A DNA stretch of 64,000 nucleotides, from the IMG/VR virus record IMGVR_UViG_3300017971_000287. The stretch is one strand, 5' to 3'. Every line of letters begins with the position of its first letter. The stretch's first letter is position 1. A model generated the notes under the pieces. The model saw only the letters and a list, made by a program, of their open reading frames with translations. It was not told the DNA's origin and did not search any database. The DNA comes from a virus. Of this stretch, positions 8,347 through 36,445 are shown in pieces. A program made the translations under genes and the position numbers.

Positions 8347-8801
8347 TGGACTGCGACATAAAACGACAAGGAACGCAATGGCTCCCTTGCCCACGCTGCG
8401 GATGGGTCTATTCGGGAAAATCCACAAAACCCCCCAGAAGGACGTGTCCAAAAGTGCCAGGAACAATACTTCACACACTGTTATTGTCCCGCTTAGGAAC
8501 AGACGTGGTTTCTGGCTGTGCTTGTAGGGCGTGGATCAGTCAGATGAACCGTTGGGGGCCTGATAGATGCCGAGACAACCTTATAAAGATCGTTAATGCG
8601 TTACTTGCAGAAGCTAAGCGGCGAGAGTGGAAATTAGACGGAAAACCGATTCTTTCTAGAATAGCTAAGTATGGAACAACCTTGCCGGGCGGGATAATCT
8701 TTGCGCGTAGCTGGGCACGTAAGCTAGTATTGGAAGCGATCAAAAGGAGCGAACAAAGTGAAGAACCCGATTTGGGCGTATGGCCTGCTGACCGTTCCTG
8801 A
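8346..8801 (+). CDS. Cys-rich protein (CPRC zinc-ribbon-like N-terminus)
   Basis: CPRCGW..., PGTILHTLL..., CACRAWISQMNRWGPDRC; last gene before the glycan cluster. Confidence 0.55.
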   Translation: MDCDIKRQGTQWLPCPRCGWVYSGKSTKPPRRTCPKVPGTILHTLLLSRLGTDVVSGCACRAWISQMNRWGPDRCRDNLIKIVNALLAEAKRREWKLDGKPILSRIAKYGTTLPGGIIFARSWARKLVLEAIKRSEQSEEPDLGVWPADRS

Positions 8802-9459
8802 ACGGCGGTATGATCTTTTTCCAATAACTCTAAAAAGTCTAATAGAAGCTGGGTTTCACAACCCTACTCTTTTCGTGGATGGTGACTCTTCTTGCAGTGA
8901 ATACGAACTGTTTAGCCTGCCTGTAGTCACTCACAACCCTCCTATTCGTATTGTAGCAAACTGGATGACTGCTGCTTGGCAACTACTTGTTTGTAATCCA
9001 CAAGCAACTCACTTTGCGTTATTTCAAGATGATGTCTTGCTTTGTAAAGGGGTTCGCCAGTACATTGAGCAAGGAGAATACCCTAAGAAAGCTTACCTCA
9101 ACCTTTGTAACTACAAAGAGAATGAAGAGCTAGCAGACGGCAAAAAAGGTTGGTATCCTTCTAATCAGAAAGGAAGAGGGGCGCAAGCGTTGGTTTTTAG
9201 CCGGCATTCATTTGCAGGCTTGTTGGGTACTAACAGAATTGCTGAACGCGCTTTATGTGTTAAAAACGGGTGGCGGAACATTGATGGAGGTGTCTCTCTT
9301 TCTGCTAACGCATTAGGCTACACTGAATTAGTTCACATGCCTTCTTTAGCAGAGCACATTGGGACAAAAAGTACGATAGGTAACAGCTTTAATCGGTATC
9401 CTGGACCAGAGACTTTTCCAGGAACCGCTTACAACGTTTTTACAGGAGCGCACTCATGA
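8758..9459 (+). CDS. Glycosyltransferase-like protein (GT-A fold)
   Basis: TLFVDGD, ALFQDDVLL (DxD-like), GAQALVFS, PSLAEHIG motifs. Confidence 0.65.
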   Translation: MKNPIWAYGLLTVPERRYDLFPITLKSLIEAGFHNPTLFVDGDSSCSEYELFSLPVVTHNPPIRIVANWMTAAWQLLVCNPQATHFALFQDDVLLCKGVRQYIEQGEYPKKAYLNLCNYKENEELADGKKGWYPSNQKGRGAQALVFSRHSFAGLLGTNRIAERALCVKNGWRNIDGGVSLSANALGYTELVHMPSLAEHIGTKSTIGNSFNRYPGPETFPGTAYNVFTGAHS

Positions 9460-10127
9460 AACAGTATCCTCACACCCTAACTGCTGGGGAGATCAGAGAG
9501 TTTGTTAAGACAGTTTCCCCTCTTATTTTAGAGATTGGTTGCCATGAAGGAACAGACACGCTAGCTTTTCTAGAATCAATGCCCCAAGCAACCATCTTTT
9601 GTTTTGACTGCGAAAGCAGAGCTATTGCCCGTTGGTATAACAATTTACAAAAGCGACGTCAACTAAGCAGTAGTGTGTTCCTTGTGCCAAAAGCAGTTGC
9701 TGATGTTGATGGCTCACGAATGTTCCACGCTAGTACAGGGCGGGCAGGCTATCGAGAGGATTGGGACTTTTCCGGCAGCCTTTCTCAGCCTACCGGACAT
9801 TACCAACGTTCTCCTGAAATTAAATTCAAAGACCCAATCGACGTACCTTGTATTCGACTCGACACATGGTACGACACCCGGTATGGTGATACTTCTAATA
9901 CTGTAATTGACTTTGTTTGGGCAGATGTCCAAGGCAGTCAACTGTTTGTAATTGAAGGGGCCCAAGAGACATTCAAAAAGGTTCGATACCTTTACATTGA
10001 GTCTCATAGCACCCCTCTCTATGCAGATGAACCTACACAAGAAGAACTAATCAAAAAGTTAGCTCCTTGGTTTTGTCCTATTGGTATCTATGCCCGTGAA
10101 AACATTTTGTTTGAGCAACGATCATGA
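9456..10127 (+). CDS. FkbM-family SAM-dependent O-methyltransferase
   Basis: ILEIGCHEGTDT, CIRLDTW, IDFVWADVQGSQ, YLYIE motifs. Confidence 0.85.
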   Translation: MKQYPHTLTAGEIREFVKTVSPLILEIGCHEGTDTLAFLESMPQATIFCFDCESRAIARWYNNLQKRRQLSSSVFLVPKAVADVDGSRMFHASTGRAGYREDWDFSGSLSQPTGHYQRSPEIKFKDPIDVPCIRLDTWYDTRYGDTSNTVIDFVWADVQGSQLFVIEGAQETFKKVRYLYIESHSTPLYADEPTQEELIKKLAPWFCPIGIYARENILFEQRS

Positions 10128-11545
10128 ATACTTTTCAACGCACAGGAAAAGTGGACACTTCTATTTCTTTGAATAGAAAGGCTCACGTAGAAAGACCTCA
10201 ACAGCAGACCATAATTATTGCGGGCATTCCTAGGGGAGGTACGTCGATGGTTGCTGCCGTCATTGAAGCACTAGGAATTGACCTAGGTCCAAGAGAAGAC
10301 ATGGATGCTTTTAACTTTGAAGACCAGAAGATGCAGAGTGCTTACATTGAAGTACGTGCAGAACGGGTTAAACAACGGAATAAAGAGTGTGACGTTTGGG
10401 GATGGAAGGACCCAGTAGGAATCACAAGGGTACAAGACACTACACCCCTTCTAAGAAATCCTTATGTTATTCTTGTGTCTAGGGACCCCCTAGCAACGAT
10501 TCAAGGAGAGTTACGTTTTGACAAAGCCCATGCTAGCTTAGGACTGAGAACCCTAAAAGACATCACTGCACAAACCAGACGCTGGTGGAACTGCAACTTT
10601 GACTTCATTCAGGACACAAAGCTGCCTACTCTTCTTGTAAGCTACGAAAGAGCTATTAACAATCCACCAAGGTTTGTGAGTGAAGTTTGTGACTTTCTTA
10701 GCTTGGCTCCAACAGAGGAAGAAAAACAAAAAGCAATAGAGAGAATCTCTCCTGCTGGAGGGTACTTAACAACTATGTCTGAACCAGTAGTGAAAATTAA
10801 ATTAGAAGACATTGATTGGAGGTACATCAACCTTTCTCACCGTATTGACCGTCGTAAAAATATGAAAGTGCAAATGCGACGGTCAGGAATTTTAGTTAAA
10901 CAGTTTTCCGCCCTTCGCAAAGAGGACTACACTGGCTTGGAAGAAAAAGTTTCTCTAATGCGAGCAACCCCAAATACAATAGGTAACTGGCTTTCTCACA
11001 CTGCTCTAATAGCTGAAGCAAGAGACACAGGGAAAATCATCGGGGTGCTTGAAGATGACTGCTTACTCTGTATAGACATGCAACAACGCCTAAGATACGT
11101 TGAAGGACACTTTCTGAACAAACCTTGGGACATTTTCTTTTTGGGAGCAACGTTTCATACTACTCCAGGGGGCAAATGGCATCCCGAATTGGGCAGAGAC
11201 TTTGAGCTAACTGAGACACAACACATTGTAAAAGTCTATGGTGCCTTCTCAAATCAAGGCTACTTGGTCAACCCTCAAAGCGCAGACAAAATTCTCTTTC
11301 GTATGAATGAGATCATGCATAAGTCAACAGGAAGTGATCACGCTTTAATACAACTACAACCAGAATTGAATTGCTACTGTTTTGTTCCTGGGATGGTTTT
11401 TCAGATTGATGGACCTTCTGACATAGGAGAAGGAGTAACTAAGTTTAGCAACTTTTTCAACCTTGGTCCACACGTTTGGACAGAGAGACTTAGCGAATTT
11501 GATTGGGGTTCTTGGGAAACAAAGCAAAAGGAGACAGTCCAATGA
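10124..11545 (+). CDS. Fusion of sulfotransferase-like N-terminal domain and GT25-like glycosyltransferase
   Basis: N-term IIAGIPRGGTSMVA (PAPS 5'-PSB-like loop), WGWKDP, VSRDPLA, VSYE; C-term YINLSHRIDRR, GNWLSH, VLEDDC, DIFFLG typical of GT25. Confidence 0.75.
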   Translation: MNTFQRTGKVDTSISLNRKAHVERPQQQTIIIAGIPRGGTSMVAAVIEALGIDLGPREDMDAFNFEDQKMQSAYIEVRAERVKQRNKECDVWGWKDPVGITRVQDTTPLLRNPYVILVSRDPLATIQGELRFDKAHASLGLRTLKDITAQTRRWWNCNFDFIQDTKLPTLLVSYERAINNPPRFVSEVCDFLSLAPTEEEKQKAIERISPAGGYLTTMSEPVVKIKLEDIDWRYINLSHRIDRRKNMKVQMRRSGILVKQFSALRKEDYTGLEEKVSLMRATPNTIGNWLSHTALIAEARDTGKIIGVLEDDCLLCIDMQQRLRYVEGHFLNKPWDIFFLGATFHTTPGGKWHPELGRDFELTETQHIVKVYGAFSNQGYLVNPQSADKILFRMNEIMHKSTGSDHALIQLQPELNCYCFVPGMVFQIDGPSDIGEGVTKFSNFFNLGPHVWTERLSEFDWGSWETKQKETVQ

Positions 11546-12441
11546 ACGTTTTGGTTACTGGTGCTGCTGGGTTTATTGGAAACCATCTTTGTAGGTATTT
11601 ACAGAAGGAACACTACGTTGTTGGCGTCTACCATGATCGCTTCCCATCAACAGCTACTTTTCACGCAGTTCAGGCTGACGTTACAAACACAGACAGACTA
11701 CTGAGTTTACTTGTCAATTTGGAAATAGACTTTGTTTACCACTGTGCTGCTCGGTCTATTGTCCGGCACTGCTGCCAAGACCCTCTTGACTGCTTTTCTG
11801 TTAACATTATGGGTACTGCTGCTTTGCTGGAAGCTTGTCGCCGTTCAGAACAGATCAAAGGGGTTATGTGTATGGAGAGTGATAAATCATATGGACCAGG
11901 ACCTCTGCCCTACAAAGAAGACCAAGCGTTAAATCCGACAGGTATTTATGAGGCGTCAAAAGCCTGTGCTGGTCACATTGCTAGATGCTACTACAAAAAC
12001 TTTGGTGTACCTGTATTTACTGTTCGATCAGCAAACGTGTATGGTCCTAGTGATCCAAACAAAAGCCGACTCATCCCTAACACTATCAAAAGACTACGTG
12101 CAGGGCACCAGCCAGAGATCACAACTGGAGCAGATCGTTTTTCTAGAGAGTTCATCTATATAAAAGATTTCATTGCTGTTGTTGTTGGCCTAATGGAAGC
12201 AATTCCTTGGGGTAAAACAATCAACGTAGGCTCTGGAGAGATGGCTACAGTAACAGAGATTATTCAGTTAATCTGCTCAACTATGAAAAGAGAGTGTAGT
12301 CCAGTAAGCCTACCCGGACCAAAAACACTACAAGAAATAGAGCACCAACAGTTAGACACAACCCTCATGCATTCCTTGTTACCCTCTCTTCGTTCATTTT
12401 TTACTTTACCAGAAGGGATTAAAGCAACATGCTCAACCTGA
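11542..12441 (+). CDS. NAD-dependent NDP-sugar epimerase/dehydratase (CDP-glucose 4,6-dehydratase-like SDR)
   Basis: VLVTGAAGFIG, HCAA, ESDKSYG, YEASK (YxxxK), RSANVYGP; start at ATG 11542. Confidence 0.9.
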   Translation: MNVLVTGAAGFIGNHLCRYLQKEHYVVGVYHDRFPSTATFHAVQADVTNTDRLLSLLVNLEIDFVYHCAARSIVRHCCQDPLDCFSVNIMGTAALLEACRRSEQIKGVMCMESDKSYGPGPLPYKEDQALNPTGIYEASKACAGHIARCYYKNFGVPVFTVRSANVYGPSDPNKSRLIPNTIKRLRAGHQPEITTGADRFSREFIYIKDFIAVVVGLMEAIPWGKTINVGSGEMATVTEIIQLICSTMKRECSPVSLPGPKTLQEIEHQQLDTTLMHSLLPSLRSFFTLPEGIKATCST

Positions 12442-12983
12442 AAAACCGATCTACACTGATGGCTTCTCTTCCCAAAAACGGAGTAGGTGTTGAAGTAGGA
12501 GTGTCAGAAGGTTTGTTTTCTGAGACACTATTACAGGTTTGTACTCCTTCTGTCCTCTACCTAGTTGACCCCTGGTTGTTTCTACAAGGAAAGGAACATG
12601 AAGAGGATGCTGCTAACGTCTCTCAGCCGGAGCAGGAACAACGATACCAAGCAGTGTGTGGCAAGTTTGCTCTCCTTGCAAGGGTGCAGATCGTTCGTGA
12701 CTTCTCTGTGTCTTTTGCCGCCGCCACTCCTTTCCTTTTTCCTGATTGGGTATACCTTGACGGAGACCACACCCAAGTAGACCAAGACATTGCAGCATGG
12801 TGGCCAAAAATTAAACGAGGGGGGTGGCTTACCGGACATGACTACCTAACCTGCGGAGACCACTTGCGGGTAAAGCATCATGTTGATACGTTTGTTAAAA
12901 AGGAAAAGCTACCTTTGTTCGTAACAGAAGGAGACAGCTTGTACGAAAAGAACTATCCTAGTTGGGCGGTACAAAAACGATGA
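12429..12983 (+). CDS. Class I SAM methyltransferase (Methyltransf_24-like)
   Basis: VEVGVSEG, LVDPW, DWVYLDGDH, GGWLTGHDY. Confidence 0.85.
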   Translation: MLNLKNRSTLMASLPKNGVGVEVGVSEGLFSETLLQVCTPSVLYLVDPWLFLQGKEHEEDAANVSQPEQEQRYQAVCGKFALLARVQIVRDFSVSFAAATPFLFPDWVYLDGDHTQVDQDIAAWWPKIKRGGWLTGHDYLTCGDHLRVKHHVDTFVKKEKLPLFVTEGDSLYEKNYPSWAVQKR

Positions 12984-13513
12984 GACTAGACCTTACAAGC
13001 AGAACAACCCTTATGGCTACTTTGCCTTGCTACGGGGTTGCAGCAGAAGTTGGAGTGTTAGATGGGCAATTTTCTCAACAAATTCTTCAAAAAAACAGCC
13101 CACGACGTTTTTATCTAATTGACTGCTGGCAGTGTCCTCCTGGTTGGGACCCTTTGACTGTTGATAAGATCAACCAAGACTACTTAAAAAGTTACTACAC
13201 ACTCTTGGAACGGTATGCAAACAACCCCGCAGTACGTATTTTACGTGAATGGTCACTTGCTGCTGCTACTCTCTTTCCTAAAGACTACTTTGATTGGGTG
13301 TACATTGACGCAGACCATATTCAAGTGGCTCAAGATATCAATGCTTGGTTGCCTAAAGTTAAACAGGGTGGATACCTGTTAGGACATGACTACTGTGGAG
13401 ACAACCCTGTAGCAAAAGACGTAGACCAGTTTAGTAAAGTCAATAATCTACCTTACTTTCTTACTCAAGAACGGTTAGCTACTTGGGTGTTCCAAAAGCG
13501 TACAAAGGAGTGA
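12980..13513 (+). CDS. Class I SAM methyltransferase (Methyltransf_24-like), paralog of the upstream gene
   Basis: AEVGVLDG, LIDCW, DWVYIDADH, GGYLLGHDY; start ATG 12980. Confidence 0.85.
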   Translation: MRLDLTSRTTLMATLPCYGVAAEVGVLDGQFSQQILQKNSPRRFYLIDCWQCPPGWDPLTVDKINQDYLKSYYTLLERYANNPAVRILREWSLAAATLFPKDYFDWVYIDADHIQVAQDINAWLPKVKQGGYLLGHDYCGDNPVAKDVDQFSKVNNLPYFLTQERLATWVFQKRTKE

Positions 13514-13517
13514 CTTC

Positions 13518-14234
13518 ATGACAGAGCAAGAAAACATGACTGATGACGAACTGAATTCTCTGTTTTTGTCTGCTGGCTCTGCTGACGAGTATAGATTGAA
13601 AAAATTGTCGTTTGTTCCTGACGTTATTTATGACATAGGTGCGGATGTGGGCAGTATTACAATGTTTGCTGCTGCCAATTTTCCACTTACCAAAATTGTA
13701 GCAGTAGAACCCAATCCTTGGAGCTTCAAAAGACTTGTCACTAATGCACAACAGTTGGGGTACTCTAACGTTTTTCCTGTTCAAAAGGCATTAGGACAAG
13801 GAGAAATGTTTGAGCCGCAACCGACAACACCCCCGCTACACTGGATGGTAGTAAATCGAGACCACCCTTGTTGGCACGAAAACTTACAACCTAGTAAAAT
13901 TCAAAGTGTTTCTCTTGCTGAACTCTACAATGTTCATAGGGGCAAAAAGTACGTAGTCAAGATGGACTGCGAAAGCGCAGAACTGTTTGCTATCACCGAG
14001 AAGAAAAGCAAGCAAGTGATTTTGAACTCTGGATACTTCGCAGCAGAACTTCATGTCTGGGCTCAATGCGGTAGTTGTGTTCCCCACGTTGCAGAAACCC
14101 TTTACCGTTTTATTTTTGAACTAGCGCAATCCCATACTGTTTGGACTAAGTGTTATGGGGCTTGTATCCACGTGTGGGCAAAGAATCGAAAGTTCACCTC
14201 TGGGGAAGCTACTACCAACGATACAACCAACTAA
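13518..14234 (+). CDS. FkbM-family methyltransferase
   Basis: IYDIGADVG, VAVEPNP, VKMDCESAE. Confidence 0.8.
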   Translation: MTEQENMTDDELNSLFLSAGSADEYRLKKLSFVPDVIYDIGADVGSITMFAAANFPLTKIVAVEPNPWSFKRLVTNAQQLGYSNVFPVQKALGQGEMFEPQPTTPPLHWMVVNRDHPCWHENLQPSKIQSVSLAELYNVHRGKKYVVKMDCESAELFAITEKKSKQVILNSGYFAAELHVWAQCGSCVPHVAETLYRFIFELAQSHTVWTKCYGACIHVWAKNRKFTSGEATTNDTTN

Positions 14235-14255
14235 CTCAACAAGCGATAGTGTTTT

Positions 14256-15017
14256 ATGCTCAGCCAGCAAGAGTACACAGAAACGTACAAACGGGAATTT
14301 GAACTCTGTTTCAATGAGGTTTGTGGCAAAGACTATTACCGATTAAAGTCTTGTCCTATTATCCCTGACGTTGTTTTGGATGTAGGTGCCAACGTTGGAA
14401 GCTTTACTACCTTTGCACGGTGCTTGTTTCCTCTGGCTCAGATCGTAGCAATTGAACCTGACCCTGTTACTTTTGCAGGATTAAAATCATTTGTAGAGCA
14501 CCTACCCCGTGTTAAGTGCTTTCAATTAGCATTAGCTACTGGGCCTGTATGGCAAGGTCTTTCAGAAGACACAGCAGAGTCTTATTACAGCGCAACAAAC
14601 AGCTACGTTACCCAAGACCAAATTGGTTTTCCTGTAGAGCAAATGGCTTCTCCTCCCGGACAGGCGGGTAGAGACGCACTGCCTATCTACAATCAATGTC
14701 CGCATATTTCCCCAATCAGTTTAGACGCTTTGGTTGAAAAGTGGGTCTGTCCAACCGACAGACTGTTACTGAAATTGGATTGTGAAGGGGGAGAAAATTG
14801 CATAATCACTCACAAGCCTTCATTACAGGCTTTGCGAAGGGTTGATGTGCTTACAATGGAAACGCACTACTACACAAAAGGAACCGGAACAGAACACGAA
14901 ACAAACAAAGTATTGATTGAACATGGGCTAGTAGATGCTCTAAAAGAAACTCATCAATGTGTTTTAGAAGAAGAGCAAAGGTACTTTGGCGCCATCAAAA
15001 AGGAGCTAGTCTTTTGA
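14256..15017 (+). CDS. FkbM-family methyltransferase
   Basis: VLDVGANVG, VAIEPDP, LKLDCEGGE. Confidence 0.85.
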   Translation: MLSQQEYTETYKREFELCFNEVCGKDYYRLKSCPIIPDVVLDVGANVGSFTTFARCLFPLAQIVAIEPDPVTFAGLKSFVEHLPRVKCFQLALATGPVWQGLSEDTAESYYSATNSYVTQDQIGFPVEQMASPPGQAGRDALPIYNQCPHISPISLDALVEKWVCPTDRLLLKLDCEGGENCIITHKPSLQALRRVDVLTMETHYYTKGTGTEHETNKVLIEHGLVDALKETHQCVLEEEQRYFGAIKKELVF

Positions 15018-15898
15018 ACCAGGTTATCTGCTTTGTTGCTGACCAAAACTATTTTGACCACGCCAAATATGTTCTTGTCAACTGCAAAAGACAAGGAGGT
15101 TGGAAAGGGGATTTTTGTATCATCACTCCAGGAGGAGGCGCATCAGACTTTCAACATCGTGGAATCCATGTCTATGAAGTAAAAGGTTCTTGGGACTTTA
15201 TGGTCAAGTTTCATGCTTTTACTCCGTTCTTTCACCGTTGGGATGAGTGTCTTCTTCTAGACTTAGACATTGTAGTCCAAGGACCCCTACAAAAAGTCTT
15301 TGATGGACTGCGGTCACGATTACCAAAACTACTAGCAAACCAAGAGGATGGAGACACTCTAAGTGCTCTCAAACATTGGGATGAAAAAAGGGAAGAACAC
15401 ACAGACGCTTACCTTCGTGTCCAAGAATTGTACCCTCATGTTACGAACAAAATGTTCAATATGGCTATCCTCTTCTTTCGTCCTAAAAGCTTACCTCCAG
15501 ACACTCAAGAAAGATTACGCCAGTTGCATGAAGAATTCAAAGAGATCAATCCTACTTGTGCTGATCAGATGTTGGTCAACCTACTATTGTATGATCAACT
15601 AGAGGAAGCTGGAAAAGACTACTGGACTTTCATGGGCAACGATTGGCCTTGTAATCGTGTAAAGAGTGTAGGCAGAGGATGGAGAGGAGATGAGGAGCCT
15701 GTAATCCTACATTACACGCGGTGGATGGCTCCTTGGATTGTAAAGTACCCTCCAGAGGGAGACGCCTTGAAAGGGTTACTAGCCTTGGGGTTGCCTCCCG
15801 AAACTGGAGGATACCGTAATCACCGATTAAACGTTGTGTGTCACGAATTCTACGCTGAATGCGTAAAGGCATTTAATGAGGAGTTCCCAATAGTATGA
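15014..15898 (+). CDS. GT8-like glycosyltransferase (paralog 1)
   Basis: TTG start after AGGAG; FVADQNY, LLLDLDIVV (DxD), FNMAILF, ADQMLVN, LHY. Confidence 0.75.
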   Translation: MNQVICFVADQNYFDHAKYVLVNCKRQGGWKGDFCIITPGGGASDFQHRGIHVYEVKGSWDFMVKFHAFTPFFHRWDECLLLDLDIVVQGPLQKVFDGLRSRLPKLLANQEDGDTLSALKHWDEKREEHTDAYLRVQELYPHVTNKMFNMAILFFRPKSLPPDTQERLRQLHEEFKEINPTCADQMLVNLLLYDQLEEAGKDYWTFMGNDWPCNRVKSVGRGWRGDEEPVILHYTRWMAPWIVKYPPEGDALKGLLALGLPPETGGYRNHRLNVVCHEFYAECVKAFNEEFPIV

Positions 15899-16728
15899 AA
15901 CCACATGCACTAGTTTTGGTTGCTGATGGTGCTTACTTAGATCATGCTCGAAGTTTGTTTGTGAACTGTGCAAAACAAGGCAATTGGCAAGGAGACTTTG
16001 TTTTGATTTGTCCAGGCGGTTGTAACACTTTCTCAATAGAGAATCGGGGTATTACAATTTTACGTGCTCCAGAGAAGAGTTGGACTAACCGTATCAAATT
16101 TCGCATCTTTGATGATTGGTTACGAGTATGGCAGTTTGTTTTGTACCTAGACTGCGATGCTCTAGTGCAAAAAAACTTGAACACAATCTTATCAGTACTA
16201 TATGACCAGCCTGACAAAATTTTCTTTGATGGGTCGCAAAAGACGACCATCATGGACGACTGGCTACACTTTTGTAAAAAGGAAGGGGTTGACCCTCAAG
16301 AACAAAAAGACACTTTTTTGAGACTAGAACAGCAATACTCTTCTATTATTCACAAACGTATCTTCGTTAGTAGTGCTGTCCTCTTTTCTCCGCAAAGGGT
16401 TCCAAAAGGCACAGTAGTCTGCATGAACGACATTCAAGATCGTTTTTGTAAAATCAATCCAGGAGAGTACGATCAACAGGTAATGAACCTTGCTTTGTAC
16501 GACAGACTCGCCCCCTTACCTAAATGGTGTGTTACTTGGTTTGCTTTTGATGAGGCTGACAACCCTTCTGTTGTGTCGCACTATTGGGGTATGTACGCCC
16601 CTTGGATAGAGAAAATAGAAGGGGCTGGAGGGTACTACAACAATCCTTTAGGCAAAACTTGTTACCAAGCATACGTACAACATCGAAACGCTTTCGCCTC
16701 TGTTTTTCCTAAGAAAGAAAACACTTAA
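15895..16728 (+). CDS. GT8-like glycosyltransferase (paralog 2)
   Basis: VADGAY, LYLDCDALV, YDQQVMN, SHYWG.YAPWI. Confidence 0.75.
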   Translation: MKPHALVLVADGAYLDHARSLFVNCAKQGNWQGDFVLICPGGCNTFSIENRGITILRAPEKSWTNRIKFRIFDDWLRVWQFVLYLDCDALVQKNLNTILSVLYDQPDKIFFDGSQKTTIMDDWLHFCKKEGVDPQEQKDTFLRLEQQYSSIIHKRIFVSSAVLFSPQRVPKGTVVCMNDIQDRFCKINPGEYDQQVMNLALYDRLAPLPKWCVTWFAFDEADNPSVVSHYWGMYAPWIEKIEGAGGYYNNPLGKTCYQAYVQHRNAFASVFPKKENT

Positions 16729-16729
16729 C

Positions 16730-17635
16730 ATGAGCCGTACAGTTGTTGTTTTTGTAACAGATGAAGCTTACCTACCCCACTACAAGTCACTTGCTGTAAA
16801 CTGTCATAACCAGGGACAGTATCGTGGCGACTATCTATGGGTGTGTTCACACCTGCCTTCCAAAGAGATAGATGATTTAGAGTCAAGAGGGTTTCACACT
16901 TTAGAAGTGGAAGAGCAAGGTTTCCTTGCCAAATTTCGCATCTTTGATGAACAACTCAATCGTTGGGAGCAAGCTTTCTATCTTGACGCTGACGTGCTTG
17001 TGCAACAACCCTTCCAGCCTCTGTTTGATCAACTTACAGCGTGGCCTCGCGAAAAACTCTCTGCTCGATTTGGCTGTAAGATTCGCAAGCGGATTCTTTC
17101 TAGCCGTGAAGAAGTCCCTGTGTTTATGGGTTGGCAAATTTGGGACGAAGAATGGAAAGAGCATACAGCCATCTATGAAAGAATGGCAGAACAGTTTCCG
17201 CACGTTCTTTCTGCGGATAAAATGTGGTCTACTGCCCTGTTGTTATGGGAACCACAAAGTATTCCTGCTACCACCGTACAAAGACTGAACGAACTACAGC
17301 AAGAGTACCATGTCTGTAACAACCCAGAAAAAGGAGGAACTGACGAACAGATTATTGACTTACTTATGCATGAAGACATGGCACAAGTAGGAGAAAAGGC
17401 CTGGTGCTTTTGGGGCTTAGATGAGGAGAATGCAAGAGTGCCTTCAATTGCTAGAGGGTGGCGTGGAGGAGAAATACCTGTTGCTCTGCACTATGGTCGG
17501 TGGTACGCTCCTTGGATTGAAAAAACGCCTGACATGGATGCATACTCTCTGCCCCGACTAGACAAAGTGTGTCACGAATTTTACGCAGAAAACTTGGCTG
17601 CATTCGGTACTGTTTTTCCTAAAAGGAGTAACTGA
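16730..17635 (+). CDS. GT8-like glycosyltransferase (paralog 3)
   Basis: VTDEAY, FYLDADVLV, TDEQIID, LHYGRWYAPWI. Confidence 0.75.
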   Translation: MSRTVVVFVTDEAYLPHYKSLAVNCHNQGQYRGDYLWVCSHLPSKEIDDLESRGFHTLEVEEQGFLAKFRIFDEQLNRWEQAFYLDADVLVQQPFQPLFDQLTAWPREKLSARFGCKIRKRILSSREEVPVFMGWQIWDEEWKEHTAIYERMAEQFPHVLSADKMWSTALLLWEPQSIPATTVQRLNELQQEYHVCNNPEKGGTDEQIIDLLMHEDMAQVGEKAWCFWGLDEENARVPSIARGWRGGEIPVALHYGRWYAPWIEKTPDMDAYSLPRLDKVCHEFYAENLAAFGTVFPKRSN

Positions 17636-18306
17636 TGGCTACACTAGTTGAATTGGGTGTCAAAAACAAGACGGACAAAGTAGGTCACAACTATCTGAAC
17701 CATTATGAAGAACGATTCAAACCGATTAGAGAGGAACGGTTCACCCTGTTGGAACTAGGAATTATGCGTGGCAGTTCTCTGCGCATGTGGCGTGACTTTT
17801 TTCCTCTTGCAAACATAGTTGGTGTTGATATTACAAAGGAAAGCATGCTAAAAGGAGAAGAAAGGATCCAATGTTACCAGGGAGACCAAGGTAACAAAAG
17901 CTTTTTGGAAGAAGTAGCAAAAGTAGAAGGACCATTAACTCTTGTTATAGACGACGGGAGTCACAGAGGGTGGCACCATGTTGAATCCTTCAAAGCCTTA
18001 TGGCCCTTTGTTAACCCCGGTGGATGGTACTGTATTGAAGACGCTTTCTCCATCTTTCATAAAAGCTGGACTGATCCAGGGCATTTTACAATACTGCACC
18101 TCATTGAGGAAGAGTGGGCAGCGATCATTCGTAGTCAGAGCACGATTGCTCAAGTAGCTGTAATAGGTTGTGACACCTGCAAACCTCTTGCAGGAAGAAA
18201 CAACGGGCTGATCTTTTTACAAAAGGCAATTGTAGCAAAAGAGGATATGCCTCTGCCTAAAAATGAAGAAAGTAACTTTTTTACCAGTAAGGACAGGAGG
18301 TACTAG
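17635..18306 (+). CDS. Class I SAM sugar O-methyltransferase (MycE/TylE-like C-terminal domain)
   Basis: TDKVGHNY..HY, LELGIMRGSSL, VGVDI, QGDQ, VIDDGSH, GGWYCIED. Confidence 0.8.
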   Translation: MATLVELGVKNKTDKVGHNYLNHYEERFKPIREERFTLLELGIMRGSSLRMWRDFFPLANIVGVDITKESMLKGEERIQCYQGDQGNKSFLEEVAKVEGPLTLVIDDGSHRGWHHVESFKALWPFVNPGGWYCIEDAFSIFHKSWTDPGHFTILHLIEEEWAAIIRSQSTIAQVAVIGCDTCKPLAGRNNGLIFLQKAIVAKEDMPLPKNEESNFFTSKDRRY

Positions 18307-18307
18307 C

Positions 18308-19108
18308 ATGCTGACTTTAGCAATAACCGCATTCGATGAAATGGAAGAACGTCGCGGTTGCGGAAATAGACTGTTACAATGTATTAGCTACGCTCAGAAG
18401 CACCCGTCAATACGTGAAATTGTTATTGTAGACGATGGCTCAGAACGCTATTCCGAATTGTTAGCACTTTTATCCAAAGAACCCAAGAAACTTTGGATAG
18501 GTAGCAACGTTCAAAACCTGGGTGTTTTTGTAAACAAAATTGAAGCCGTTGCCCGCAGTACAAGTGCTTGGGTTATCACTTGTGATTCAGATAACTGCAT
18601 GGATGCAGGATACATTGACAAGGTCCTATCTCTTTGGCGTACAGAAAAAAGTTGGTATTGTCCTAGCTTTGCCAAGCCTAAATTTGATTACAGAGAGCTA
18701 ATTGGAAGCTACAACGGAAAGACTCTCAAAAGAATCATCAGACATCCTTCCTTTCCTTGTTTCTTTAACACAGGCAATCAGGTTGTCCACCAAAAGACAT
18801 TTATGAAAGTGTTTGGAAAATACCGTGGACAACGGGCTGACTTACTGTTACCTAACTGGTTGGGTATCCAAGAGAAGAAACGGAAAAGCCATTATTGGCG
18901 TATGGTGTTTGATGCTTGTGACTCTTTTTTATTGAACTATTTGTGGGTTCAAGCAGGGGGGTCTATTGGTATAGTGGAAGGACTAGAGTACCTTCACCAC
19001 TATGCAACAGGAGACGACGGCAATTATGCTAGGTCCCCCAAAGAAAAAGCAGAACTAGGGGAAATATTGCTAACCCAATTACGTCACCTTATAGAGGCCC
19101 TACAATGA
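18308..19108 (+). CDS. GT2-family glycosyltransferase
   Basis: EIVIVDDGS, NLGVFVNK, ITCDSDN; start ATG 18308. Confidence 0.8.
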   Translation: MLTLAITAFDEMEERRGCGNRLLQCISYAQKHPSIREIVIVDDGSERYSELLALLSKEPKKLWIGSNVQNLGVFVNKIEAVARSTSAWVITCDSDNCMDAGYIDKVLSLWRTEKSWYCPSFAKPKFDYRELIGSYNGKTLKRIIRHPSFPCFFNTGNQVVHQKTFMKVFGKYRGQRADLLLPNWLGIQEKKRKSHYWRMVFDACDSFLLNYLWVQAGGSIGIVEGLEYLHHYATGDDGNYARSPKEKAELGEILLTQLRHLIEALQ

Positions 19109-20013
19109 ACCGTGTCACAATGAGCCAATTCGGTAGGTGGGGACGGGCAGGAAATCAGTTCTTTCAGTACGCATTTCTAACGGAGTATGCACAACAGTAT
19201 GGCGCACAGTTAGAATTACCCGCTTGGGTAGGCACTCATCTGTTTGGTGCTTCCAATCCTTCTATTACAACGAAGCTGCCTGTATGGACAGAGCCAGGCA
19301 GCGGTCTTCAGCATCCTACTCCCCCAGAAGGTGACGAACTGGTTGGTAAAGACTTTCGAGGGTACGCCCAATACCACACAAGCTACTACAAGACACACCA
19401 AGACCAGATACGTTTGTTGTTTGCCCCTGTTCCAAAAGTAGCTGCAAGACTGCGCCCAGCAGAAGAACAATTACAGCAAGCGGGAGAAACAATAATTGGA
19501 ATCCATCTTCGCAGAGGAGACTATGGTAGAGGCATCTTTCCTATCATACCTACCGAATGGTATTTGAACTGGCTCTACAAAAATTGGAGCCGTTTCAAAA
19601 GGCCCGTCCTGTTCATTGCAACAGAGGCACTGTCACTAGTAGAAAAGTTCAGGGAGTTCAATCCTCAGACGGTAGAGACTCTTGGTATTGCTCTTGAAAA
19701 CAAACCGATGGCAGATTGTACGTATCTTTCTTACGATCTCAAAACGAAAGACAGTAGGGCTATGGACTGGTATCCTGACTTTCACTTGCTTTCTCTCTGT
19801 GACATCTTGCTAGGCCCTAGCAGTACGTTTAGCTTCTTTGCGGCTATGTTGAATCCAAGCCTCCAAGAATACTGGCGTGCTTCTCTTGCTATCGCCTATT
19901 GGCAAAGGACAGACCCGTGGGATGCGTACCCTCTAATGCGGGAGCACGTAAATGACTACCCGCACCTATCGTCGGTTAGGTCGTCTCACCGGCAAAATCC
20001 GTATTGGAGATAG
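19105..20013 (+). CDS. GT11-family (alpha-1,2-fucosyltransferase-like) glycosyltransferase
   Basis: GRAGNQFFQYAF, GIHLRRGDY (HxRRGD), FIATE, DFHLLSLCD, STFSFFAAML. Confidence 0.85.
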   Translation: MNRVTMSQFGRWGRAGNQFFQYAFLTEYAQQYGAQLELPAWVGTHLFGASNPSITTKLPVWTEPGSGLQHPTPPEGDELVGKDFRGYAQYHTSYYKTHQDQIRLLFAPVPKVAARLRPAEEQLQQAGETIIGIHLRRGDYGRGIFPIIPTEWYLNWLYKNWSRFKRPVLFIATEALSLVEKFREFNPQTVETLGIALENKPMADCTYLSYDLKTKDSRAMDWYPDFHLLSLCDILLGPSSTFSFFAAMLNPSLQEYWRASLAIAYWQRTDPWDAYPLMREHVNDYPHLSSVRSSHRQNPYWR

Positions 20014-20984: not shown

Positions 20985-22553
20985 TTACGCTTTTTTCTTG
21001 GGACCAACGTAAGTGAGAGTGTGCTTTGCCCGCGTAACAGCAACGTAGTACAAATTGTACTCCTGTTCTTTTTGCCACGCTGTTCGGGCCATAGGGTGTG
21101 GAAGCAGAGAGGGGTCCAAGATAAAAACGTTGTCTGCTTCCAATCCTTTGGCTTTGTGAATACTGCTAAGCTTAATGCCGGTTGTCTCTTCGTCCGTGAA
21201 GATTTTATCAATTCGTTTAATGACCTCTTCTGGCGTAGCAGCGTCTTCTATGAAAGCCATGATACAAGAGTGACGATCTTGAAGAGCAATGATCCGATTT
21301 TCGTTTGGAACCGGACGAGTACCTTCACGTGTCGTCTCTAAGGAAAGCCAGGAGTCAAGCTTCTCTTGTAGGTCAGTTATGGAAGCTGGTTTCAGTCGTT
21401 TAATAAGACCGCTGAGACGAGTGCCTATGTCTTGGCCTTGAATGACAGCCTTACGTCCTTCTTTCAGAAACTGAAAGCACTGCGAAACAAGAGGAGCATT
21501 GGTTCTGCAAAGAAGCATATCACCATCTGCTATGGATGTTTTATACGCACGAAAACTGATCGTTTGAACTGCCCCATTAGGGTTGCTCTCATGGGCTTGG
21601 TAGTCAGGAACGAACTGTTGAGCTTCTGCCACAACAGACTTAGCGCACCGATAGGTGATCGTCAACGGTAAAGAGACACAGCCTGCTGGCATTTCTGAGA
21701 GTAAACGGTGCATTCGTGGCATACTTTCACAGTCTGCTCCTGCAAAACCAAAGATGGCCTGCTTTGGATCACCGCAAAGCACAAGACGTTTACCAGCCCG
21801 TAGCATGAGTTCCTGTTGGGCCCGGTTAAGGTCCTGTGCTTCATCCACAAACAACAGGTCATAACAAAACAAGGGAAGGTTCAGAACAACAGGAAGCCAA
21901 ACCATGTCAGCATAATCAAAACGTCCATCCTGTTGTACGTCCTTTGTTCTTTCCAGGACACGAGGCACTAGGTCCAGGATTGTTTCGAGACGATTACCAA
22001 GGTCTACATCATAGTGCGAAGCAAGACTGACTAGACTTGTAGGCCAATCCTTTTCATGTGGGATGTGTCCTGTAAGAGTCATCTTACAAAGATCAACCAA
22101 ACGACACGTTGCGGAAAGCATTTCCCGCTCTTTACTGCGTAGCTGCCAAATGTCTCTATTGAGGAGCTCAGCAATGATCTCTTCAGTACGTTTGCCGTTG
22201 ACAATATTCCGCCCTTTGAGACCAAAGTGTTTAGTGATAGCTTTGAATCCCATTGAGTGAGCGGTCATTGTAGTGCAGCCGGGTGGAACCCGTTTTTGTA
22301 ATTCTGTTTGAATCGCTTTACTGAAAGCGACACAACAAACAGAGCGAGGATTCTTGGATAGTGCGATAGCATCCCAAATAGCCCTCTGTTGAGAACTGGG
22401 ACTGATTGAAGAAGAGAAGCCCATTAGATTTTTGACTCCCTCAACAATAGTAGTTGTCTTACCCGTTCCAGCAAGAGCAAAAATCATTAGGTGAGGGGCC
22501 GTCTTTTTGGTCTTTCGTTTTCTTTGTCGTGTAATGGATTGACTTAGACTCAT
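20985..22553 (-). CDS. Superfamily 1 (UvrD/Rep-like) DNA helicase
   Basis: ALAGTGKTT, LFVDEAQD, CGDPKQAIFGF, TYRC, SIHKAKGLE, YVAVTRAK. Confidence 0.92.
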   Translation of the reverse strand: MSLSQSITRQRKRKTKKTAPHLMIFALAGTGKTTTIVEGVKNLMGFSSSISPSSQQRAIWDAIALSKNPRSVCCVAFSKAIQTELQKRVPPGCTTMTAHSMGFKAITKHFGLKGRNIVNGKRTEEIIAELLNRDIWQLRSKEREMLSATCRLVDLCKMTLTGHIPHEKDWPTSLVSLASHYDVDLGNRLETILDLVPRVLERTKDVQQDGRFDYADMVWLPVVLNLPLFCYDLLFVDEAQDLNRAQQELMLRAGKRLVLCGDPKQAIFGFAGADCESMPRMHRLLSEMPAGCVSLPLTITYRCAKSVVAEAQQFVPDYQAHESNPNGAVQTISFRAYKTSIADGDMLLCRTNAPLVSQCFQFLKEGRKAVIQGQDIGTRLSGLIKRLKPASITDLQEKLDSWLSLETTREGTRPVPNENRIIALQDRHSCIMAFIEDAATPEEVIKRIDKIFTDEETTGIKLSSIHKAKGLEADNVFILDPSLLPHPMARTAWQKEQEYNLYYVAVTRAKHTLTYVGPKKKA

Positions 22554-22640
22554 GGCTGAGTTCCTTTTGTTATTGGCGCAGTAAATACAAATACGACGAG
22601 GGCCATAAGGGCCAACAGAATCAGAATCAGTAGACTTCTT

Positions 22641-22877
22641 TCAACGAGTCATTCGGTGAAAGAGAAGTATAACAAGCCCTACAAGAGCCATGGGAAGTAC
22701 CACTTTATACCACGACACTTCTGTGAAGTAGATTAAGTAACCAAACCCTGCTCCAAGTATTCCTCCCAGTATAGTAAAGCTAATAACCGTGCCAAGGACA
22801 TCGAGATCATGCGGGCTGAGTCTCTGTCTCTTATGACGGTCTTTCTCGTTAGTCTGTTTCATCGTTTTATTCTCCAT
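22641..22877 (-). CDS. Small membrane protein (2 TM)
   Basis: Two hydrophobic segments in 78 aa; overlaps the upstream stop. Confidence 0.6.
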   Translation of the reverse strand: MENKTMKQTNEKDRHKRQRLSPHDLDVLGTVISFTILGGILGAGFGYLIYFTEVSWYKVVLPMALVGLVILLFHRMTR

Positions 22878-23449
22878 ATCAGAAGGCCACCGACGATCAG
22901 CATCATGAGCGTGCTTGGCTCAGGTACTACGGTCATCACGGTTACGTTGTCGATACCCCATCGAGCACTACCTCCATTAAAGTCAAGACGATACCATTCT
23001 TCGTGCCCTGAGAGTTGCGTAGACATACGATACACGCGGTCACCTTCAGAGTAGCCTAACGTGTTTCGCTCGACTAGCTTTCCTGAACCGATAGCATCGA
23101 GTAGGTGATTACCAAGAAACACTTGAGTTCGGTCATTGCTAGGGGTGTACTGCGACATGGTCCAGGCCTGCCCTTTCGGCCAAGAACCGATAGCGTACAC
23201 GTCCCAGGAGATTAGGACGTAGTGCCAATAGTCGGGCATCTGAATTGTGAGAGATGTTTGCCCTAGTGGTCCCAAGAACTTTTCGCCCTTTGGAGCAGTA
23301 GTGATCTTGTTGCTAGACCACTGTAATCGTTTGCCTTGTTGGAAGTTGTCGGTGATCGTTTCTCCTTTGCTGAGGCTGCTAAGAAAAACGAACACAAGGA
23401 ATCCTACAAGAGTACTCAAGACGATCCAGTGTATGGTGTTACGGTTCAT
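22859..23449 (-). CDS. Secreted PEP-CTERM-sorted surface protein
   Basis: N-terminal hydrophobic signal segment; C-terminus VVPEPSTLMMLIVGGLLIWRIKR = PEP motif + TM + basic tail. Confidence 0.85.
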   Translation of the reverse strand: MNRNTIHWIVLSTLVGFLVFVFLSSLSKGETITDNFQQGKRLQWSSNKITTAPKGEKFLGPLGQTSLTIQMPDYWHYVLISWDVYAIGSWPKGQAWTMSQYTPSNDRTQVFLGNHLLDAIGSGKLVERNTLGYSEGDRVYRMSTQLSGHEEWYRLDFNGGSARWGIDNVTVMTVVPEPSTLMMLIVGGLLIWRIKR

Positions 23450-23630
23450 GACTCAATCCTTTCTTGTTTTGGTTACGATTGCGTTGTTGGATTTGGAAAA
23501 AATGAGTGCCGGTTTGCTTTGCCTGGATACGGCACTCTTTTTCGGACATATTTTTCCAGGGTTGCATGGCTAAGGCAGGGGCATTCGCTGGACGAAAGTA
23601 GTAGTGTAGTTGTTCTACTTCAGATAACAT
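23439..23630 (-). CDS. Small hypothetical protein
   Basis: ATG 23630 after AAAGGA; stop overlaps the next start. Confidence 0.5.
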   Translation of the reverse strand: MLSEVEQLHYYFRPANAPALAMQPWKNMSEKECRIQAKQTGTHFFQIQQRNRNQNKKGLSHEP

Positions 23631-24721: not shown

Positions 24722-24907
24722 TTACAGGCCTAAGCCACGACGAACAGCAAGGGCTGCGATGTACCAAACAGTGTACCAAGCACTCAAGATACCAGCGAGT
24801 ACAAAGCATGCGTAAAGAAGCACGGCAAAAATGGGCAAAGGTGCTTTTTCTGGTTCTGGTTTGAACATACAAGGCTCCTGTAAAGACAGTCGGTTATGGG
24901 TTATCAC
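24722..24907 (-). CDS. Small single-TM protein
   Basis: GGAG SD; hydrophobic stretch LPIFAVLLYACFVLAGILSAWY. Confidence 0.5.
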   Translation of the reverse strand: MITHNRLSLQEPCMFKPEPEKAPLPIFAVLLYACFVLAGILSAWYTVWYIAALAVRRGLGL

Positions 24908-24975: not shown

Positions 24976-25812
24976 CTACCGTTCGTCACGTTCATGAAGC
25001 TTTTGTAGTTCATCTCGCACAACATTGAATGCCCCGTCAAACGTGTAGACTCCAGCAGAAAAAACACGTAGCTCATCGGGAGTTATGTGATCTAAGTCTG
25101 TAGCGTTACTAAGGTAGACTGGCCCTAGACCTAGTGCTGGTTTTTCACCCTGGTCTCTACAGATAGTGCGAAGTAGACAAAAGGTGAAAGTGCGGTAGAA
25201 CCAACCTGCTACCGTGTTAATCAGCGTAGAAACGTCAAGAGGGTCACTGCATCTTTTCAGACAGCAAGCAGTCATAACTGGGGTCCTGTTTCTTTGGTAA
25301 AGCCTAGTGCCGTTTGTAACCCATATCTCGGTGACGTATCCTTTCTCTTCAAGAATCTTGGCGAGAGCAAGAGCGGCAGCACCCCGCCAGAGGATGTCAT
25401 GACTGCTTCGGTATGCTTCGGTAGAAGTGTCAATCACGATAGTGACTTCAGTGGGCCCTTCTGTGACTTCTCTTTCCACGGTTCGCCAGTAGGGTTGACC
25501 AGCCCGCAGCCGGTCATAGTCGATTTCATCACCTTGGTCTTCAGAGAACCGCACTTGGCGTTTGTGCGATTTTAGTTCGGGCAACCGCTCTTTCAAGAGA
25601 CGGTCTGTGTATTGTTGAAGGACACACATGCCTTCTGCCCAATCTCGTTTGGAACGTTTCTCAGCAGACTTAAATGTTGGAAGCCGCTCACCGACAAATC
25701 CCGCTGATTTGGTGTCTACGGAATAGAATCGTTGATCGGAATACTCGATGACTTCCGTCATTGAGTCGAACAAGAAAATCTCATGGTCCTCATTGGTCGT
25801 AATGTGTCTCAT
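24976..25812 (-). CDS. vWA-like partner of a MoxR-type AAA+ ATPase (CobT-like)
   Basis: GDEIDYDRL..GQPYW, VTIVIDTS (MIDAS-like), RGAAALALAKILEEKGY; directly downstream of the ATPase. Confidence 0.65.
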   Translation of the reverse strand: MRHITTNEDHEIFLFDSMTEVIEYSDQRFYSVDTKSAGFVGERLPTFKSAEKRSKRDWAEGMCVLQQYTDRLLKERLPELKSHKRQVRFSEDQGDEIDYDRLRAGQPYWRTVEREVTEGPTEVTIVIDTSTEAYRSSHDILWRGAAALALAKILEEKGYVTEIWVTNGTRLYQRNRTPVMTACCLKRCSDPLDVSTLINTVAGWFYRTFTFCLLRTICRDQGEKPALGLGPVYLSNATDLDHITPDELRVFSAGVYTFDGAFNVVRDELQKLHERDER

Positions 25813-25828
25813 GATTGTGACCTTTCGG

Positions 25829-27076
25829 TTAGGGAGTATAGCTTTTGACTTTGTTTACTTCATCTTCACGCCAGCCCATGAACAACGCTTCTTCTACCTC
25901 TTCCATGGTAAAGGGTTCATGGTCTCTCCCATAGTCTTTTGGGTAGAGCATCTCATGAGCGTCACGCATGAACCGAGTGCTGATTGCTCTTTCAAGACGG
26001 TGTGCATCCACGGCCTTGCGATAACGTAAAAGTAGAGCACGCAATTCGTCGTCAGGACAGAGGATAGTTTCTACCCGTTCATCATAGTCCATGGCTACTT
26101 TGCCGATATGGAATCGGTCAAGACTTGCGGCATCCAGTTTGTTACGACCGCTGTAAAGACGGTCAGCCCCAGTACCTACCGTGTTGGCGGCAGCGGTGCA
26201 AACAAAATCCGCATGACGTTTGGCGTAAGGTTTCTTAGGACGGTTTGACACAGCCACTTGCCCATTAGCCAAGGCCGCATTTATGAAAAGCAGCACGTTA
26301 CTGTCTGCGGCATCAATCTCATCCAGAAGGAACACGCCACCGTTTTCATAACACTTTATGAACTCACTAACCCCGTAGTTGAATTGTCCGTTCCTTCCGG
26401 TAGGCAACAGACGACCGCCCAATACACCCTCTGACATTCCGCTGGTGCAAGAGACAAACGCAAAAGGCAGACCCAAAGCAGTGGCTACTTGTTCACACAG
26501 ATGAGACTTACCGCAGCCAGTGGGACCGTACACGAATATGTTTTTGCGGGCCTGAGCAAGTTTCAAAACACGGCGGAACTGAGCGTGGAAAAGGTCCTTC
26601 ATGACCTTTGCTTTTTTGGTTCCAGGTTTCTTGATTCGCACTTCCACAACGTTCATAGAGGCTTTCTTGACTTCTTCGCGTGCTTTGTCACGTTCCTTCT
26701 CAGCTGTCTCTGCTTGCTTTTTAGAGACACCGATCTGGTGTTGAAGTTCAGCGACAGACGCCTTCATTCTTTCTATTTGCAGTCGCCACTGCTCTTGGGT
26801 TCGGTTGTGAGTCCTTTCATCTGACCCATCTTGCTGGTCTCGGGAGGTCTTATGACCAAACCGGCCCGGTTCTCCACGAAGCCTGCCTACGCCACAAATC
26901 AGACCCACTTCATGCATCGTGAGAATAATGGTAGCGATTCTACTCGTATTACTAGTGGAGATATAACGTCTCACTTCTTCTATCAACCGGAGTTTGGTCC
27001 AGTAACGGTTTGGTTTCTCAGCAAGAATCCGAAGCACAGTTAGTACTACAGCACTGTAATCAAACTTTCTAGCCAT
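25829..27076 (-). CDS. MoxR/CbbQ/CobS-like AAA+ ATPase with N-terminal wHTH-like and coiled-coil regions
   Basis: YGPTGCGKS (Walker A), FLLDEIDAAD (Walker B), AAANTVGTG, LDAASLDRF. Confidence 0.88.
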   Translation of the reverse strand: MARKFDYSAVVLTVLRILAEKPNRYWTKLRLIEEVRRYISTSNTSRIATIILTMHEVGLICGVGRLRGEPGRFGHKTSRDQQDGSDERTHNRTQEQWRLQIERMKASVAELQHQIGVSKKQAETAEKERDKAREEVKKASMNVVEVRIKKPGTKKAKVMKDLFHAQFRRVLKLAQARKNIFVYGPTGCGKSHLCEQVATALGLPFAFVSCTSGMSEGVLGGRLLPTGRNGQFNYGVSEFIKCYENGGVFLLDEIDAADSNVLLFINAALANGQVAVSNRPKKPYAKRHADFVCTAAANTVGTGADRLYSGRNKLDAASLDRFHIGKVAMDYDERVETILCPDDELRALLLRYRKAVDAHRLERAISTRFMRDAHEMLYPKDYGRDHEPFTMEEVEEALFMGWREDEVNKVKSYTP

Positions 27077-35851: not shown

Positions 35852-36445
35852 ATGTCTTTACCAAGAAAGATAAGTAGAGCGTTGCGCAAGCAATCTAAAC
35901 TATCGCTGCGTCCTGAAATTCTGTTAACTCCAAACATTCCTCGTCCAATGCATGGAGTAAACCCCCGCACAATTATGGGTACTAGTTGGTGGAACCAGGA
36001 AAGACGGAAAGCATACAAAGCTTCATCGTATCGTTGTTTAGCTTGTGGAGTCTCTAAGTTTGATGCTTTATACCGGAAGTGGCTAGAGGCTCATGAGCTC
36101 TACAGTGTTGACTATCAAAAAGGCAGACTTGTCTACCTTGAAACAGTAGCTCTTTGCTACGCTTGTCATAACTACATTCATGATGGCAGACTACAAGCGT
36201 TGTTAGACACCCAGGAAATTACACACGAGAAGTACGTAAAAATCATACAGCACGGGAACCGTGTATTGCAGCAAGCTGGGTTGTCTAGACCCCCTCGACA
36301 CGTTAGGGAGGCAGACATTAGTGATATGTTGTTGAACGGGCTTGTCGCTCCGTGGAAAGATTGGAGACTAGTGTTCAAGGGTAAGTTGTATCCACCACGG
36401 TTCAAAACAGAAAAACAATGGCAAAAAGCGATGAGGAAAAGATGA
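35852..36445 (+). CDS. HNH endonuclease-like protein
   Basis: CLACG, LEAHE, ALCYACHNYIH; overlaps the polA start. Confidence 0.75.
   Translation: MSLPRKISRALRKQSKLSLRPEILLTPNIPRPMHGVNPRTIMGTSWWNQERRKAYKASSYRCLACGVSKFDALYRKWLEAHELYSVDYQKGRLVYLETVALCYACHNYIHDGRLQALLDTQEITHEKYVKIIQHGNRVLQQAGLSRPPRHVREADISDMLLNGLVAPWKDWRLVFKGKLYPPRFKTEKQWQKAMRKR

Follow-up and report, generated by a model that had tools for sequence, protein, structure and literature searches.

The PEP-CTERM tag directs bacterial proteins to a dedicated sorting pathway, and to our knowledge it is processed only by the host enzyme exosortase. Exosortases are present in many diderm phyla, and sorting by them is poorly understood, as neither the acceptor nor the fate of the cargo has been established. 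Phages place proteins in the cell envelope through other host sorting routes, as exemplified by Llp of T5, the Cor lipoproteins of phi80 and N15, Bor and Lom of lambda and SasX of a Staphylococcus aureus prophage, a sortase substrate; Llp, acting on its receptor, keeps progeny from being trapped on debris. Searching the full-text literature, we found no paper on phage-encoded exosortase substrates. All described exosortase substrates that we found are chromosomal bacterial proteins, and the nearest case was a PEP-CTERM domain named in passing for the Dehalococcoides IME1 element.

Exploring the IMG/VR virus record IMGVR_UViG_3300017971_000287, of which we analyzed one stretch of 64,000 nucleotides (hereafter the window), we found a gene encoding a protein, P0001, that like the substrates of the PEP-CTERM/exosortase system (EpsH, XrtA and relatives; Haft et al. 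2006; TIGR02595, PF07589, PF09721) combines a putative N-terminal export signal with a C-terminal PEP, a transmembrane helix and a basic cluster. It departs from that system in being phage-encoded within a window that has no exosortase candidate, so that the enzyme must come from the host. The logic of the locus is that of Llp, Cor, Bor, Lom and SasX, i.e. a phage gene outside the virion modules that carries a host sorting signal and whose product is predicted to reach the cell envelope; their signals belong to other routes (lipobox and Lol, beta-barrel assembly, or LPXTG and sortase), and that of P0001 is PEP-CTERM. New here is the combination of a known sorting signal with a passenger family that is uncatalogued, in a clade associated with phages. 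The reading that we favor, and hold to be fairly probable, is that P0001 is a conserved phage gene for an envelope-targeted protein that is exported and sorted by the host exosortase and alters the cell surface.

The window is that of an uncultured, tailed phage of marine sediment, identified as a phage, as the preliminary description of this DNA had taken it to be, by its tape measure, portal, terminase, polymerase and helicase genes. Its main landmarks are:

3129-5468, tape measure protein
20985-22553, minus strand, UvrD-type helicase
36418-38475, family-A-type DNA polymerase
52084-53604, large terminase
53620-55218, portal protein
59386-60594, virion protein

Further genes of the window are those for UDG, a PD-(D/E)XK nuclease and an AAA_24 protein. 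A search for tRNA genes in it found none, and no integrase was seen among the ORFs scanned in a non-exhaustive check. The preliminary description had further stated that the window lacks an exosortase gene, and this holds indirectly: ORFs in the window carry at most two or three hydrophobic segments, three only in antisense ORFs, so that none is polytopic and there is therefore no exosortase candidate. The nearest isolate phages share less than 35% identity with the window in portal and helicase, and their hosts are mixed, including haloarchaea. A tblastn search with P0001 of 50,697 GenBank phage records gave no match, and no PHROGs family was matched. Scanning IMG/VR for patterns derived from P0001, alignment A1, P0018, P0010 and P0003 returned no relative, a blank that is weak evidence as few exact peptide patterns were used; the scan with P0004 found one relative.

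The gene and its two neighbors are arranged as follows:

22641..22862, minus strand, downstream gene for a 73-aa protein with two hydrophobic segments
22859..23449, minus strand, gene for the PEP-CTERM protein P0001, 196 aa, stop codon included, based on the ORF list and translation
23439..23630, minus strand, upstream 63-aa ORF, soluble, called as a gene on contig L002

The P0001 ORF starts with an ATG at 23449-23447 that is preceded, 8 nt to the 5' side, by an AGGA-type ribosome binding site; the coding region spans 22862-23449 and the stop codon is a TGA at 22859-22861. A protein identical to P0001 is encoded on four contigs from at least two studies, and the stretch has been seen in sediment and seawater metagenomes. 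The longest contig bearing P0001 measures 68,684 bp, leaving about 4.7 kb outside the window. The stop codon of the 63-aa ORF overlaps the start of P0001 by 11 nt, and the ATG of the 73-aa gene shares the sequence ATGA with the P0001 stop codon. In a consensus scan we found no promoter or terminator bracketing P0001, site counts being not above those of shuffled sequences. Because the gene overlaps both of its neighbors and is not bracketed by promoter and terminator, we concluded that P0001 is an embedded operon gene and rejected the possibility that it is a self-contained phage moron. It lies in a minus-strand block with genes for a MoxR-like AAA ATPase, a DUF7192 protein, HTH proteins and the helicase. 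Hence, of the early operon to which the gene had first been assigned, the operon itself stands, with its helicase, HTH and AAA-ATPase genes, and its early timing is suggested by gene content only. The flanking small membrane protein gene that had been noted is the 73-aa gene, whose product matches no Pfam or NCBIfam family above cut-off.

A few further features of this block were noted. Upstream in the operon, a MoxR/CobS-like AAA_5 ATPase gene (phrog_249) adjoins the gene of the DUF7192 protein (24976-27076, minus strand), and contig L002 has this pair as well. In the related contig L003, the PEP-CTERM homologue is immediately preceded by a counterpart of the 63-aa ORF (2927-3109), the two ORFs having the motif PALAMQPW in common. 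Among the homologue contexts the 63-aa ORF recurs solely in this related contig, and it may represent a leader or partner that is conserved alongside the PEP-CTERM gene. The 73-aa and helicase genes are separated by 87 nt, within which a perfect palindrome, GGCCATAAGGGCC, occupies 22600-22612, with no T-run after it.

The P0001 reading frame divides into three parts:

23366..23449, minus strand, codons 1-28, putative N-terminal export segment (sequence; AF2 helix 3-24; Kyte-Doolittle 1.86)
22928..23365, minus strand, codons 29-174, passenger domain, predicted beta-sandwich jelly roll of carbohydrate-binding-module type, with motifs FLGP.G, D.Y.IG.W, NTLGY and WGIDNV
22862..22927, minus strand, codons 175-196, PEP-CTERM sorting signal (VPEPS, hydrophobic helix, R-I-K-R; AF2 helix 179-195)

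The N-terminus consists of MNRNTIH, a 20-residue uncharged run, WIVLSTLVGFLVFVFLSSLS, and KGE, i.e. a basic n-region and then a hydrophobic core whose 20 residues make it longer than is usual in cleaved signals; S-L-S supplies small residues at -3/-1 before K28. The segment of codons 1-28 resembles a signal peptide with a putative cleavage site between S-L-S and K, or is possibly an uncleaved signal anchor. The C-terminus, VVPEPSTLMMLIVGGLLIWRIKR, carries PEP at 176-178, a hydrophobic stretch at 179-192 and the basic residues R193, K195 and R196 at its end. TIGR02595 matched residues 175-196 at 18.7 bits, above its curated cut-off of 16 (E 0.0022), and Pfam PF07589 scored 20.3 bits, 0.4 under its gathering score of 20.7. 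The signal segment and the VPEP-transmembrane-basic C-terminus that the preliminary description had read at 22859-23449 are thus both present, as a signal-peptide-like N-terminus and as PEP, hydrophobic helix and R/K/R, and its assignment of the protein to PEP-CTERM is upheld by TIGR02595.

The main rival explanation turns on these two ends. It holds that P0001 is an exosortase-independent periplasmic protein anchored in the inner membrane, in which the N-terminal segment, the C-terminal helix or both tether the beta-sandwich and the PEP is an inherited relic; such a protein might, e.g., counter the entry of DNA from superinfecting phages, or target the cell wall or glycans of the periplasm. 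The long uncharged run, predicted as helix 3-24, is consistent with an anchor, and the run is longer in the clade than in the bacterial relatives (median 18 vs 15 residues, p = 0.02). The clade tails behind PEP are likewise longer than those of bacterial members (median 28 vs 21.5 residues, p = 0.004; as the sequences are related, both p-values overstate independence) and less canonical, since of the 11 closest homologues 5 pass TIGR02595 and 6 fail. The window without an exosortase candidate also agrees with a tethered protein. However, P176-E177-P178 is invariant across these 11 homologues, at 31-45% identity (alignment A1), while the remaining tail diverges, and a relic would be expected to drift. 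Because small residues at -3/-1 after the N-terminal segment are kept in most clade members, cleavage by signal peptidase is suggested, and the tail of P0001 itself is of canonical length, with 18 residues after PEP, and passes TIGR02595. We therefore regard the tethered protein as unlikely.

Besides their length, the clade tails differ from those of the known system in a tendency towards a Trp-x-Ile/Leu-Arg boundary after the C-terminal helix. It is common to the tails compared in alignment A1 (P0001, P0003, P0004, P0007, P0008, P0010 and P0018), e.g. IWRIKR, WWNIRR, WWRLRQ, GWRIRR and MWVIRKK. The long clade tails with this boundary may be a variant tuned to a particular exosortase type. Elsewhere in the window, a called 61-aa gene at 24722-24907 (minus strand) encodes KPEPEK, then some 33 hydrophobic residues and then RRGLGL, and by eye its product resembles a PEP-CTERM protein; we rejected it as a second PEP-CTERM gene, as it had no NCBIfam match at E up to 0.1 and no signal peptide.

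To describe the passenger domain, we modeled P0001 with AlphaFold2 from a 72-sequence alignment. The model (pLDDT 88.3) consists of helix 3-24, a 145-aa beta-sandwich at 30-174 and helix 179-195, and so supplies the structure prediction for the passenger that the preliminary description had proposed. An exhaustive VIA-align search placed CBM27 (1pmj) at the top, with Z 10.8 and 141 residues aligned at an rmsd of 3.5, followed at Z 9-10 by CBM22, CBM28, the cleaved-adhesin domain of Kgp and the receptor-binding domain of the binary toxin B components Ib/CDTb. Foldseek likewise returned beta-jelly-roll carbohydrate-binding modules and related adhesin and receptor-binding domains (E 4e-5 to 5e-4), and an ESM Atlas look-up agreed with both placements. 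The passenger thus has the same predicted jelly-roll fold as these domains; the fold is a common one, Z values of 8-11 being just moderately above background, and at 8-16% identity to the structural matches the likeness to beta-sandwich carbohydrate-binding modules is one of fold only. Because the fold is common and the identity this low, we go no further than to infer from the model that the passenger domain binds glycan. No Pfam carbohydrate-binding-module family was matched by P0001 at E up to 10. We found no evidence of glycosylation of P0001, and by sequence reading the passenger domain is not Ser/Thr-rich. A link between P0001 and the phage glycan cassette at 8758-20013 was also considered and no evidence for it was found.

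With phmmer, run exhaustively against 1.84 billion representatives, we obtained 135 family representatives at E up to 1e-3; a word-based search had recovered a single relative of P0001. Most members are 200-260 aa long with the three-part architecture of P0001, and the family motifs are FLG.FG, D.Y.I.SWDG, NTLGY and, just ahead of the tail, WG(L/I)DN(V/I). Of the 76 homologues with lengths of 180-270 aa, 58 carry, by a strict regular expression, a C-terminal PEP or PxP with a transmembrane segment and basic residues behind it; like the invariant PEP of the closest homologues, this speaks against a chance match of the P0001 tail. In P0001 and the 19 relatives tested, NCBIfam and Pfam models recognize the tail alone, and none extends over the passenger domain. 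The best-scoring named PEP-CTERM family is NF038120 (PEP_CTERM_QFxxD), which P0001 resembles in the final beta-strand (WG.DN.) and in the sorting tail; at 26.6 bits against a cut-off of 80, and with a match limited to the C-terminal 40 residues (157-196), membership of this family was rejected. By sequence comparison, the passenger domain is an uncatalogued family with mainly bacterial members.

Comparison across 72 homologues showed that P0001 retains all nearly invariant family residues. This conservation bears on a second rival explanation, according to which the protein is a decoy or competitor: over-produced during infection, it would occupy the host exosortase and leave unsorted those host PEP-CTERM proteins on which the integrity of flocs or slime depends, so that aggregates loosen and the phage spreads, any activity of the passenger being secondary. 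The tail of P0001 is indeed a bona fide substrate-type signal, and the gene sits in a replication-module operon and not with virion genes. In addition, the passage of PMC12642866 that cites Gao et al. 2018 states that floc formation in Zoogloea requires PEP-CTERM proteins together with exopolysaccharide. The well conserved passenger, with its nearly invariant residues intact, argues instead for a function of the domain itself, and we give the decoy little credence.

To place P0001 within its family, we built a quick maximum-likelihood tree from the passenger columns of 72 sequences. P0001-P0008 and P0010 were grouped with P0129, a long-branch row; P0013 and P0018 formed a neighboring pair, and the other 60 members made up the remainder. 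Support was moderate and came from a quick search (SH-aLRT 81-92; 81-90 for separation of the clade from these 60). Genomic context was readable for five clade members, the neighboring pair counted in, the others lying on contigs of less than 2 kb (the contexts of P0002 and P0005-P0008 were uninformative). All five are in replication modules of phage-like contigs, which are mostly unrelated to one another. The contigs other than the window are:

L003, homologues of the HTH_17 protein (53% identity), the helicase (50%) and a small protein (42%) of the window, in a different gene order
L004, and a 97%-identical copy on IMG/VR contig L016, primase, SNF2 and DnaB helicases, O-like initiator and sigma factor
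L007, primase, ERCC4 nuclease and RecD2-type helicase
L008/L009, many small ORFs, HTH protein, radical SAM enzyme and glycan cassette

The L009 record, which carries P0010, has the WGS prefix SDBS01, the prefix cited in papers on deep-sea sediment metagenomes. Since L004, L007 and L008 have little or nothing else in common with the window, the gene appears to have moved between different phages; as far as sequences can tell, the pattern fits transfer of the PEP-CTERM gene. Clade members, known from phage-like contexts only, have diverged to 31-45% identity, which argues for long retention under selection and not for recent capture. Together, the data support the view that the P0001 gene is a genuine, conserved and long-retained phage gene in a clade seen only in phage-like contexts. 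Two more readings are hardly credible, one in which the gene serves lysis or membrane disruption jointly with the 73-aa two-helix protein (holin-like or spanin-like), and one in which it was captured from a host recently and has no role for the phage. P0001 is translationally coupled to this small protein with two hydrophobic segments and its family is mainly bacterial, but the 73-aa protein is absent beside the homologues in L003, L004, L007 and L008, no lysin was seen near the gene, which is located in a replication module, and the clade bears the marks of long retention just described.

The bacterial passenger relatives bear the same sorting signal and occur in genomes that encode exosortases. 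Both genomes that could be searched, a Fimbriimonadaceae MAG (containing L006) and the Planctomycetota MAG of P0024, contain exosortases above the Pfam cut-off (PF09721), two and four, respectively. The Fimbriimonadaceae relative, the single hit among the genome contigs searched, is distant, and relatives were found in 14 of 401 sampled Planctomycetota genomes, none of them close. Homologues that could be named belong to Planctomycetota, Tectimicrobiota and Armatimonadota, and none is close enough to indicate the host. From the proposed exosortase sorting of P0001 it follows that the host would be a diderm bacterium with exosortase. The preliminary description had held that the tag narrows the host range, which is true in a weak sense, given the many diderm phyla with exosortases and the span of the named homologues.

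The bacterial members of the family are ordinary PEP-CTERM proteins of the chromosome, and two distant ones, P0024 and P0017, are located among housekeeping genes. P0024 adjoins genes for PPDK, FtsW, PBP2 and LptFG. In a Tectimicrobiota MAG, P0017 comes directly after genes for a GGDEF protein, a glycosyltransferase of GT2 synthase type, an outer-membrane factor and a membrane-fusion protein, and its locus (L011, 3753-10753) resembles one for exopolysaccharide synthesis and export. The P0017 locus hints that the passenger family works with exopolysaccharide.

Because the clade is found only on phage-like DNA, the phage probably places a protein of its own in the envelope or slime layer of the infected cell. 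Under our favored reading of P0001 as an exosortase-sorted envelope protein, P0001 would be translated during infection from the replication-module operon, coupled to both neighbors. The precursor would be exported through the host Sec pathway, with its C-terminal helix keeping it in the inner membrane and its basic tail on the cytoplasmic side. The host exosortase would then cut at or near PEP and pass the beta-sandwich to the outer envelope or the exopolysaccharide layer, by analogy to the transfer proposed for bacterial PEP-CTERM proteins. There the lectin-like domain would most likely bind a surface glycan and thereby change the surface of the infected cell, with the outcome that a receptor or the slime layer is masked against further phage adsorption, or that progeny are not trapped on debris. 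Both the sorting by exosortase and a role in exclusion or receptor masking are what we infer. The preliminary description had proposed that the phage uses host exosortase to place a protein on the infected cell surface for superinfection exclusion, receptor masking or aggregation, and our data support this proposal in part. A broader proposal, tentative and somewhat short of probable in our estimation, is that the clade forms a phage-specific lineage of exosortase substrates, in which a lectin-like PEP-CTERM beta-sandwich passes among sediment and marine phages that have no other relationship, stays in the replication modules of these phages and re-dresses the host envelope or exopolysaccharide via the host exosortase.

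If the favored reading is true, phages exploit the exosortase pathway as they do the lipoprotein and sortase pathways, and such use of exosortase to re-dress the host envelope is not described in the literature that we searched. A small, well-folded phage substrate would in that case offer a compact model cargo for exosortase biochemistry, and the PEP-CTERM tag would serve as a sequence-only marker of host type, i.e. a diderm with exosortase, for uncultured phages without cultured relatives. Should the domain mask receptors or bind the slime layer, it would bear on the dealings of phages with exopolysaccharide-rich sediment aggregates.

Two further observations concern tails and glycan genes. 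On passenger domains of the P0001 type, tails of the form VPAPG/IPSPG...RRRR stand in place of PEP in 18 of the 135 family members by pattern count (P0012, P0014, P0025, P0027, P0060, P0061, P0065, P0110, P0121, P0128 and others), which suggests that sorting signals have been swapped on one passenger family. On the contig of P0010 (L008, 7837-14581), a cassette of Methyltransf_24, GT2, cytidylyltransferase and sialyltransferase-like genes lies beside a large ORF, and one of its genes is 41% identical to 17635-18306 of the window, within the glycan cassette noted above. L004 also carries methyltransferase and cytidylyltransferase genes, and the joint presence of glycan cassettes and the PEP-CTERM gene on three contigs may reflect only shared ancestry.
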